Position numbers and translations under genes: made by a program. The notes under the pieces are model-generated. The model saw nothing but the letters and a program-made list of their open reading frames with translations. It made no database searches and had not been told where the DNA came from. A DNA stretch of 62,475 nucleotides, counting the filler, from Sphacelaria rigidula (lineage: Eukaryota), in assembly GCA_964200075.2 (NCBI GenBank). It is 11 parts of 11 records of this genome, joined end to end, with 100 filler letters (N's around TTAATTAATTAA, not from the genome) between each part and the next. Parts side by side here need not be neighbours in the genome. Positions count along the whole stretch, not along the records: positions 34,135 to 39,723 come from CAXNAA020026070.1; 10 more parts are not named here. The stretch is one strand, 5' to 3'. Within the stretch, counting starts at the first letter, position 1; the number at the start of each line of letters is the position of its first letter. Shown here one piece after another: positions 35,112 to 37,062 of this stretch.

Positions 35112-35212
35112 CAATCGAAACAGGGGTGACAAACCAGGACAACTTGGATCTGACTGAGCCCGTGGCGCACCGCGAACTCCGCCGCCGCGGCCGCGGCCGG
35201 GGGCGCGGCAAG
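35112..35212 (+). CDS. Cys-module protein, pro-region exon (the upstream exon with start codon or signal peptide was not identified)
   Basis: The 101-nt exon (TTGCAG| ... |GTAATG) encodes xIETGVTNQDNLDLTEPVAHRELRRRGRGRGRGK and ends in phase 0, matching the next exon. Confidence 0.65.
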
Positions 35213-35443
35213 GTAATGGCATTGTTACCACGTTGATATACGGCAGGAGTAACTATTTTATAGCCCGGTTGTGAAATATCAGCTGTAGCAAGAGAAGAGT
35301 TGATAACCCTCCGCATGAGCATGCGTCCGAACGATTTGCAGAGCATTTTGTACAGGAAATCTCTTCCTAGTCCTCATCATGTAGCAATGTCCCACAGGAA
35401 AACTCACGAGTATTTGCCTGCCGGTGTCTTCCTCAAAATTCAG

Positions 35444-35549
35444 CGGGACAAGTGCAGGCACTACTACTGCCCTTCGGGCTGGACGCCCATCGACAACTAC
35501 TGGAAAAAGTGCAGCGGCAAGTGCGACCTGTACGAGTGTTGTTACGAAG
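35444..35549 (+). CDS. Cys-module protein, module 1 exon
   Basis: Exon ATTCAG| ... |GTGAGC encodes RDKCRHYYCPSGWTPIDNYWKKCSGKCDLYECCYE. Confidence 0.85.
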
Positions 35550-35823
35550 GTGAGCAAACAGTGGTGTTATGCAAGAGGTTGTTCATCATCAACTCTCACG
35601 GCCAGGTGGTCAAAATCGAGTATGCATGAAGACTAACCATCGACAAAACGGATCTCTCATTTTTTATTCTTCATTGCCCTAGGTGGTGATGAATCAAGAC
35701 GTTTCGTCTCTGGACCTTGGATCAGAGTGTCCTGCCGTTGAGTCGCAGAACATCTCGAACTGCGACGCTTCATGTCCCTCTTCCACGCGATCACCAATTG
35801 TCTTTCGTGCACGCTTGTCGCAG

Positions 35824-35931
35824 AGAAAAAGGAGACGTGCAAGGACGACTACCACTGCCCAGCGGGCTACGTCAACCTTGGAAACAAGGAGTGCCGCGGA
35901 GAGTGCGACGAATACGAGTGCTGCAAGAAGG
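35824..35931 (+). CDS. Cys-module protein, module 2 exon (108 nt, phase 1-1)
   Basis: Exon TCGCAG| ... |GTGAGC encodes EKKETCKDDYHCPAGYVNLGNKECRGECDEYECCKK. Confidence 0.9.
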
Positions 35932-36148
35932 GTGAGCGGACTCCTTTGCCTGTGTGCAAATTTGAAGTTCCTCCTCGTGAAGACCAAAGAGCAGGAAGCA
36001 CAATTTGTTCGGCAGGACATGGAGATATGACTCATTATGACGTTTCGTCATCGCTTTTACGTTAAACTGAGCCGCAGCATCCGCGAAATGCTGCATTTGT
36101 TTTCTCGCCACACCATGACCGATTCCCTCACTCGCATGCTTGTCGCAG

Positions 36149-36256
36149 AAAAAAAAAAGACGTGCAAGGACGACTACCACTGCCCGGCGGGCTACATAAC
36201 CCTTGGTAGCAGGGAGTGCCGCGGCGAGTGCGACGAGTACCAATGCTGCTACAAAG
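36149..36256 (+). CDS. Cys-module protein, module 3 exon (108 nt, phase 1-1)
   Basis: Exon TCGCAG| ... |GTGAGG encodes EKKKTCKDDYHCPAGYITLGSRECRGECDEYQCCYK. Confidence 0.9.
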
Positions 36257-36471
36257 GTGAGGGGAACTCTGCTTCCACCATGTAAATTTTGCATCGCCCC
36301 ACTCGCGAAGATCAACCGGCGACGAAACGGCACACTTCTCTTTTCATGGCAGGAGATCAGGACATGTAGTCTAAAATCCATGGACCTTGTTGTAGCATTT
36401 GACCGTAAAAGAATGCAGCATGTTTTTTGTACACGCCGTCACCAGTCCCCTCGTCTGCATGCGGTATGCAG

Positions 36472-36579
36472 AGAAAAAGAAGACGTGCAAGGACGACTAC
36501 CACTGTCCCTCGGGCTACCGGAACCTCGGCGCCAAGGAGTGCAGCGGCGAGTGCGACACATACGAATGCTGCAAAAAAG
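36472..36579 (+). CDS. Cys-module protein, module 4 exon (108 nt, phase 1-1)
   Basis: Exon ATGCAG| ... |GTGAGC encodes EKKKTCKDDYHCPSGYRNLGAKECSGECDTYECCKK. Confidence 0.9.
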
Positions 36580-36854
36580 GTGAGCATGCCACGACCCCGT
36601 AGTTGATGATTGCTCTCGGATCAACCTCCCCGGAGGTAGTTCTCATTCGGCATGTGGTACCGACAGCGCGCCAAGTCCTTGTTGGGTGCTAGCTCCCACG
36701 TCATCCCAGCAGTTGTGTGGGCTACCGTTTCGAGGAGAAACCCGCGCGGATACTACGCGAGGCATGCCATGCCCAGGAAACCAGCGAACCCACAAAAACC
36801 TCGAGTGGTAACTGTGCCATGCTTTTTTTGCTATCACCTTTCCGTCGATTGCAG

Positions 36855-36992
36855 AGGACGAGACGTGCAGCGACTTCCGCTGTCCCAGAGGCTGGGAAGA
36901 ACTTTACGGCAACATCAAATGCGATGGTGAATGCGACAAGTATGACTGCTGTGAGGAGAAGCACCGCCGCCGTTGGAGGAGCGACGATTACT
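36855..36992 (+). CDS. Cys-module protein, module 5 exon plus basic tail (splices at 36992 or reads to a stop at 37010-37012)
   Basis: Exon TTGCAG| ... |GTAAGT encodes EDETCSDFRCPRGWEELYGNIKCDGECDKYDCCEEKHRRRWRSDDY. Confidence 0.85.
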
Positions 36993-37062
36993 GTAAGTCC
37001 TGCATCGAATAGCTCGTTATTCAGCTCGTTGTGATGATCGAACGGTGCATGCATGTCCGTGG

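Follow-up and report, generated by a model that had tools for sequence, protein, structure and literature searches.

A gene of tandem six-cysteine modules

We analysed a 62,475-nucleotide stretch of DNA from the brown alga Sphacelaria rigidula (GenBank assembly GCA_964200075.2), hereafter the window, and characterized a gene on contig CAXNAA020026070.1 that encodes five tandem six-cysteine modules, each on its own exon. The original prediction of six exons with GT-AG boundaries, spliced in frame to give five modules, agreed with our coordinates and translations (Table 1). The five introns between the coding exons in the window were all GT-AG and measured 231, 274, 217, 215, and 275 bp. The reading frame was kept throughout, and the junction phases across the gene were 1/0/1/1/1/1/1. 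GC content at third codon positions was 0.71-0.86 in the exons, against an overall GC content of 0.45-0.56 in the introns. A six-frame scan recovered five instances of the module motif in the window, every one within this gene, and none in 50 base-shuffled windows, even with the cysteine spacing as the sole requirement. The predicted gene end at position 37012 had to be moved, as the stop codon is split by a sixth intron and a 3' untranslated exon follows. Contig ends for this exon were found at 39008-39377, and its true end may lie beyond.

Table 1 Features of the six-cysteine module gene in the window.
Feature	Position	Strand	Description
Coding exon 2 (first in window)	35112..35212	+	Acidic pro-piece, then an RxL-type motif (H-R-E-L) and a basic stretch rich in Arg/Gly; entered in phase 1 and left in phase 0
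Module 1, first-type	35444..35549	+	Cysteine spacing 4-13-3-4-0; phase 0-1 exon
Module 2, internal-type	35824..35931	+	Cysteine spacing 5-11-3-4-0; symmetrical phase 1-1 exon, 108 bp
Module 3, internal-type	36149..36256	+	Phase 1-1 exon, 108 bp; upstream joint seen in contigs
Module 4, internal-type	36472..36579	+	Phase 1-1 exon, 108 bp
Module 5, last-type	36855..36992	+	Cysteine spacing 4-12-3-4-0; also encodes the basic tail and holds the first base of the interrupted TGA stop
Last (sixth) intron	36993..38241	+	GT..AG, 1249 bp; interrupts the stop codon; joint 36992/38242 in X1, X5, and X6, not in X9
Final exon	38242..39014	+	Last two stop-codon bases, then 3' untranslated region

Twelve sequencing runs contain the stretch, none of them recorded as RNA, and four were examined for transcripts: X1 from study P1, X5 and X6 from a single sample of study P2, and X9. 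Contigs of X1, X5, and X6 skipped introns 1, 2, and 5 at GT..AG, the first of these joints linking coding exon 2 to the module-1 exon, while intron 3 was skipped in X1 (GT..AG) and in X5 (one base off). The DNA-like run X9 spans the introns, and none of the spliced joints was present there. We therefore read X1, X5, and X6 as RNA, since introns are skipped in them whereas X9 covers the introns without the joints. Thus, the spliced transcripts on which the original prediction depended were observed at five of the six junctions, in RNA-like contigs from two studies. The joint between exons 4 and 5 (across 36257-36471) was absent among the contig matches listed.

Contigs of X1 and X6 also had loose ends before position 35110. 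The 30 letters listed of the X1 loose end equal the end of an exon at G000:C21759:4537-4612 (G000 being the genome searched), and that of X6 differs by one letter. On the strength of this link, the putative first exon, which is signal-peptide-like and has a phase-1 donor, is placed on C21759, so that the 5' exon missing from the original prediction was recovered from RNA-like contigs. It falls outside the window because the window is made of unrelated contigs joined by linkers. Contig C21759 terminates in a poly-C tract, plausibly an assembly break. Poly-C tracts were also found just upstream of the signal exons of C728, C504, C2470, C2290, and C16257, as well as at contig ends, and they are probably the reason that the assembly breaks within these genes.

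The encoded protein is likely secreted

The spliced coding sequence of 747 nt translates into 248 residues with no internal stop. In order, the protein comprises a predicted signal peptide, an acidic pro-piece, the sequence H-R-E-L, an Arg/Gly-rich stretch, the five modules, and a basic tail. Hydropathy reaches 1.62 at the N-terminus and never rises above -0.24 past the signal peptide, which argues that there is no membrane anchor. By hydropathy and conservation, the protein has both a signal peptide at its N-terminus and no transmembrane segment, features that define classical secretion, and it is therefore likely to be secreted, as originally proposed. No N-glycosylation sequon occurs in the 248 residues. 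All but one of the 31 cysteines lie within the modules, which are separated by linkers of 5-7 residues. The 178-residue array contains 32 Lys and Arg, 40 Asp and Glu, and 17 Tyr, and modules 1-5 have net charges of +1, -4, -3, -3, and -3.

We modelled one module of 34 residues with AlphaFold2. The model was small and low in structure and included a short helix at its C-terminal end (pLDDT 76.3, pTM 0.39; three of five models above 73), and a second predicted model reached pLDDT 55 and pTM 0.30. Neither Foldseek nor VIA-align returned a structural match to the module model, although a search at this size is weakly informative. No module matched a Pfam family at cut-off. The original view that the module belongs to no recognised family therefore stands, by Pfam and, so far as so small a model can tell, by fold.

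A family of about a dozen paralogs

We searched the genome for further copies of the module. The last exon gave 73 matches, and an internal module gave 90 matches at E<=0.001 with no further contigs. In total, 112 modules were identified on 18 of the 19 contigs examined, and whole arrays could be read on seven contigs, with 3, 5, 5, 8, 12, 12, and 14 modules. There were 13 first-type modules and 12 DNA matches to signal exons (9 + 3). Eight of the latter loci read as open frames, signal-peptide-like and with a phase-1 donor. The counts of first-type modules and signal exons suggest about a dozen genes. The nearest contig pairs were 85-94% identical across kilobases (four pairs tested), more like recent duplicates than alleles. 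Of 12 upstream regions examined, 9 contained an RxL-type pro-exon, this gene's among them, and a Lys/Arg-rich tail followed the last module in all ten paralogs compared (10/10), ended by a phase-1 donor in nine. On L042 (G000:C13539), near 5040-5150, the tail behind the last module is seemingly frame-shifted relative to its paralogs, with a phase-0 donor and without the usual DD end.

First, internal, and last modules formed separate clades in a midpoint-rooted FastTree phylogeny. This suggested that the arrays were lengthened and shortened by copying of the internal 1-1 exon, a clear stramenopile case of repeat-number change through symmetrical exons. The modules are charge-rich (20.0% Lys and Arg, 20.1% Asp and Glu over the 112), and we refer to these genes as the charged subfamily. 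Six cysteines were present in 111 of the 112 modules. The remaining one, at L031:8424-8525 (G000:C1385), has a seventh, which is a possible site for an inter-chain bond.

The modules are under purifying selection. A Nei-Gojobori-type count that compared 85 internal modules pair by pair, the pairs not being independent, gave a dN/dS of 0.29, rising to 0.39 when the cysteines were left out, with a range of 0.27-0.50 among regions. Four of the five window modules gave 0.08-0.33 against their nearest paralog, on C25049, and the fifth differs in length. Aromatic residues were kept at position 5 (F/Y) and after CPxG (Y/F/W), and Asp, Asn, and Gly residues were near-invariant. The loop between the second and third cysteines had been described as the variable part of the module. 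Its length does differ among first, internal, and last types. However, variable sites in the internal modules are dispersed (positions 6, 9, 14, 16, and 25), and within the loop itself N, G, K, and E residues are conserved, at a dN/dS of 0.47.

The module belongs to a wider brown algal family

To place the modules, we searched protein and profile databases. A profile of 27 modules retrieved 69 proteins at E<=0.001 among 1.84 billion, 30 of which contain the full module by pattern. Fifteen of these are members of the charged subfamily, with 83-100% identity to G000 modules, namely two partial S. rigidula proteins (identical), the window's own exon, and 12 unnamed variants. An acidic form of the module was matched in 21 of 2196 candidates, carried by Ectocarpus, Scytosiphon, Pylaiella, Cladosiphon, Nemacystus, an 'Undpi1' model that we read as Undaria, and S. 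rigidula. Besides Sphacelaria, no fewer than six genera of brown algae thus carry the family. Unnamed proteins with the module include CBJ27421.1 of Ectocarpus siliculosus ('expressed unknown protein'), CAM9555397.1 of E. fasciculatus, CAN0435025.1 of Pylaiella littoralis, models from Cladosiphon and Nemacystus, and S. rigidula CAN0019027.1, a partial model of a paralog. In G000, the acidic form gave 62 matches, and 90 modules were retrieved on 20 contigs, often two or more per reading frame. The module is thus wider than originally described, with about a dozen paralogs and a second subfamily in one genome, and relatives in other brown algae.

The two forms were linked by profile-profile comparison (probability 88.8%, E 2.5e-6). 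In addition, an HMM of 93 modules from other proteins matched all 112 G000 modules (mean 23.4 bits, minimum 16.2), against a mean of 3.9 and a maximum of 14.9 bits for cysteine-fixed shuffles, in a test that is not fully independent since the training set was partly gathered with the charged family's own profile. By these sequence comparisons, the window modules are assigned to an unnamed brown algal six-cysteine CPxG family (C-x4-5-C-P-x-G/D-aromatic...C-x3-4-C-x4-CC).

The relatives share the C-P-x-G-aromatic and C-x4-CC motifs, a signal-peptide-like start, and R-[RKH]-L ahead of the array, which directly precedes module 1 in 8 of the 15 other proteins listed. They differ from the charged subfamily in that modules of the other genera are acidic and more hydrophobic (28.5% hydrophobic residues in the wider family, 14% in the charged subfamily) and have a 14-residue loop between the second and third cysteines, whereas the window's subfamily is charge-rich, with a loop of 11-13 residues, one module per exon, and basic ends. 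In further unnamed carriers the linkers are rich in Thr and Pro, and some of these proteins have a hydrophobic segment at the C-terminus. RKL linkers recur between arrays in proteins P0020, P0073, and P0090.

A single genome thus holds at least 200 copies of this unnamed module (112 + 90), with relatives in a range of brown algae, and all the carriers from other genera are annotated as unknown. Its under-annotation is explained by the shortness of the exons, and the named S. rigidula records of the charged subfamily are partial. Although the module is absent from Pfam by name, the type of protein is familiar: secreted tandem disulfide repeats, an RxL pro-piece, and growth by symmetrical exons. 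No description of the module was found in the full-text literature searched, by accession number as well, although subscription journals, supplements, and secretome listings may hold the genes. The available text of PMC12629598, PMC8307928, PMC6418280, and PMC4220933 contains no description of the module.

Among longer proteins there were four matches, two of them merged with a PNPOx gene. The third, P0091, is a secreted subtilase model from Pylaiella with four C-terminal modules at residues 595-743 behind a Pro-rich linker. The fourth, P0092, is a merged Nemacystus model in which a single module at residues 639-669 lies downstream of a vanadium bromoperoxidase. A module adjoining a bromoperoxidase, together with 12.5% Cys and 20% Asp and Glu, would suit an extracellular metal or redox buffer, in which Zn, Cu, or Ca would be bound by the cysteines and carboxylates, or the oxidants made by wall haloperoxidases would be taken up. 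We consider this very unlikely. The cysteines are even and fixed in number, and the secretory route normally oxidises cysteines to disulfides. Moreover, the framework outside the cysteines is conserved as well, which points to a folded domain.

Two stretches bearing wider-family modules in G000 have further features. On the minus strand of L064:3-2072 (G000:C11092), an intronless open frame of 690 codons holds at least 15 modules and runs off the contig end, and the opposite strand is likewise open, over 678 codons. On the minus strand of L076:417-1022 (G000:C18912), a C2-domain match (E 7.5e-5) lies downstream of the modules on the same strand and may belong to a neighbouring gene.

Comparison with known cysteine-rich families

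The original prediction had drawn a link to defensin-like peptides through the six cysteines ending in CC and the gamma-core. The gamma-core has the pattern G-x-C-x(3-9)-C, and beta-defensins are spaced C-x6-C-x3-4-C-x9-C-x5-6-CC. The gamma-core pattern was found in 102 of the 112 G000 modules but was kept in only 34 of 93 modules of the wider family, and the match is at the level of the sequence pattern. The beta-defensin spacing occurred in 0 of 112 modules, and no defensin family was matched in Pfam. We also compared the module with PcF, a small cysteine-rich protein of Phytophthora (PDB 2bic), which shares its stramenopile origin with the brown algal modules. PcF has a similar C-x2-I-G-C-P start and CC-E-x2-C, and was weakly matched by the wider-family profile (E 0.035). 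However, the fourth cysteine of the module is unmatched in the alignment, and PcF is a single unit of 52 residues. It was not listed for the profile of the window's subfamily at E up to 10, and no module had a Pfam PcF match.

Together with the multigene expansion, these likenesses would allow the gene to encode a precursor of defensin-like or toxin-like antimicrobial peptides. Several findings make this improbable and leave the defensin link unsupported. Defensins are cationic and diversify under selection. A charge of +3 was reached in just 9 of the 112 modules and exceeded in none, the window modules are mostly acidic, and dN/dS was at most 0.5 in every region. Furthermore, no RxL site was found between modules in the charged subfamily, where the linkers are 5-7 residues long.

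The animal Shisa N-terminal domain (Shisa_N, PF13908; PDB 5m0w) showed a comparable likeness, with its F-x-C-P...C-x-G-x-C-x4-CC aligning over 27 residues. The matches were weak: E 0.1 for PDB 5m0w, and 3 of 27 modules in Pfam with a best E of 0.016, the score of P0003 (14.2 bits) lying below the 22 required. Shisa proteins have eight cysteines in the order C*C*CC*C*CC*C, according to the accessible part of PMC10531659, and the available text of PMC6125347 defines the Shisa/STMC6 group by a single transmembrane helix and a Pro-rich tail. Whereas the Shisa domain is single-copy, with eight cysteines and a membrane helix, the window protein has six cysteines per module, in tandem, and no membrane segment. 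Membership in Shisa/STMC6 is not supported, given the sub-cut-off score, the cysteine number, and the missing transmembrane segment. The 34-residue module model also gave no match to the 5m0w fold, a comparison of little weight for so short a chain.

In animals, the Shisa domain is found on receptor adaptors. This, with the secreted-type paralogs and the distinct clades of first, internal, and last modules, could suggest a developmental or gamete-recognition signal whose specificity is encoded by the paralogs. Of the readings considered here, we judge this the least probable, as the protein lacks a membrane anchor, the Shisa matches fall below cut-off, and internal repeats that are nearly interchangeable and vary in number suit a material better than a code. 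The module may share ancestry with oomycete PcF or with the Shisa domain, judging from motif likeness, and we treat both likenesses as leads only.

Another short cysteine-rich repeat is known to be expanded in brown algae, EsV-1-7. No module matched EsV-1-7 in Pfam at E up to 10, and the Pfam library presumably holds a model for it. The available text of a preprint on brown algal genomes describes EsV-1-7 as a greatly expanded cysteine-rich repeat and proposed zinc finger, and uses the word cysteine once, for this repeat (10.1101/2024.02.19.579948).

Two diatom systems resemble the window protein in architecture. Diatom biosilica-associated proteins typically have a signal peptide and a piece of about 30 residues ending in RRL, which in silaffins is removed by proteolysis, as given in the accessible part of PMC5525289. 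Like the RXL-domain wall proteins described there (silaffins, Silicanin-1), the window protein has a predicted signal peptide and a short pro-piece ending in RxL, located about 20-30 residues past the signal peptide. It differs from them in having no silica role, and no sequence match was shown. Trailin3, a secreted protein of diatom adhesive trails, has eleven six-cysteine repeats that belong to no known domain, as far as the available text states (10.1101/2023.03.06.531300). The likeness to the tandem six-cysteine repeats of the window protein is by description and is drawn here as an analogy.

A candidate cross-linker or adhesive of the cell wall

The brown algal wall is well characterized as a gel of polysaccharides, but few of its structural or adhesive proteins are known. 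The wall consists of about 40% alginate and about 40% sulfated fucan, both anionic and together about 80%, according to the available text of PMC6736953. A charge-balanced chain of beads, variable in length and with cationic ends, would fit a spacer that bridges such polyanions. We propose that the protein is a disulfide-stapled spacer, secreted and trimmed at the RxL site, that cross-links or glues the polyanionic wall, a reading to which we give about an even chance.

In this model, the first exon would direct the protein into the endoplasmic reticulum, where the 30 cysteines of the mature chain would form 15 disulfides, three per module, giving protease-resistant beads on linkers of 5-7 residues. 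A protease would then cut off the acidic pro-piece at the RxL site, as in diatom wall proteins, and expose an Arg/Lys-rich N-terminus. Alginate or sulfated fucan could be gripped by charge at the basic ends, and the beads, being charge-balanced or acidic, would remain hydrated or share Ca2+ with alginate. Gain and loss of symmetrical 1-1 exons would set the length of the spacer (3-14 modules), yielding struts of differing reach. The modules appended to a secreted subtilase model (P0091) and downstream of a bromoperoxidase in a merged model (P0092) would fit an anchoring role. The gene offers a specific candidate, one that can be expressed, for protein-alginate cross-linking or for wet adhesion.

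Several points weigh against this proposal, in which the wall role itself is predicted from sequence. The proposed grips would be lost if the basic stretches serve as convertase sites and are trimmed off, as may be the case, and the N-terminal stretch is just a few residues long in the long-array subfamily. The wider family is barely basic (1.4% Lys and Arg in 44 modules), so the electrostatic model cannot be the general function of the module. Each enzyme fusion is one automatic gene model, in P0092 visibly run together with a second gene. The module-bearing G000 stretches retrieved gave no match to a subtilase, haloperoxidase, or PNPOx, the G000 subtilase relative sits on a contig without a listed module match, and only 1 of the 140 frames scanned near modules (of 251 candidates) had a Pfam match. 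Finally, the structure models are modest (pLDDT 76, pTM 0.39; pLDDT 55, pTM 0.30), and the disulfide pairing is a prediction.

Alternatively, the module could be a small domain for specific binding, lectin-like or protein-binding. The basic stretches would then be processing sites, and the released array would be a multivalent binder, tethering wall polymers, enzymes, or partners at the cell surface by avidity rather than by charge. Such a domain would be in keeping with the conserved aromatics and near-invariant Asp, Asn, and Gly, with modules that follow a Pro-rich linker on a subtilase or Thr/Pro-rich ones in unnamed proteins anchored in the membrane, and with the internal RKL linkers of P0020, P0073, and P0090, which suggest polyprotein cutting. 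However, the charged subfamily is poor in hydrophobic residues (half the share of the wider family), and the G000 stretches examined contained no enzyme fusions. We regard the binding domain as the main alternative, possible though on the unlikely side. It agrees with the spacer proposal in that both make the product a matrix protein.

A broader form of the spacer proposal would join the two subfamilies. The module could be an old and overlooked extracellular disulfide domain, serving as a general wall-docking unit on bromoperoxidases and proteases, which in Sphacelaria was recharged and multiplied exon by exon into length-tuned, cationic-ended polyampholytes that cross-link the alginate wall. 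We think this extension rather unlikely.

Other features of the window

A MITE-like inverted-repeat element of about 225 bp was found at 37063-37286, inside the last intron. It has terminal inverted repeats of about 35 bp and a GGTTAG-repeat core, and the paralogs carry numerous copies of it in their introns and flanks. Remnants lie at 38889-39203 and 39466-39630. Ten 100-base N/linker blocks (5590-5689, 11279-11378, and so on every ~5689 bases to 56887) divide the window into 11 unrelated contigs of about 5.6 kb, and the neighbourhood of contigs flanking a block is not real. Tandem arrays, comprising a 41 bp satellite, an AAT-rich microsatellite, and a 124 bp repeat, were observed on other contigs of the window at 27766-28311, 56266-56787, and 58563-59015.

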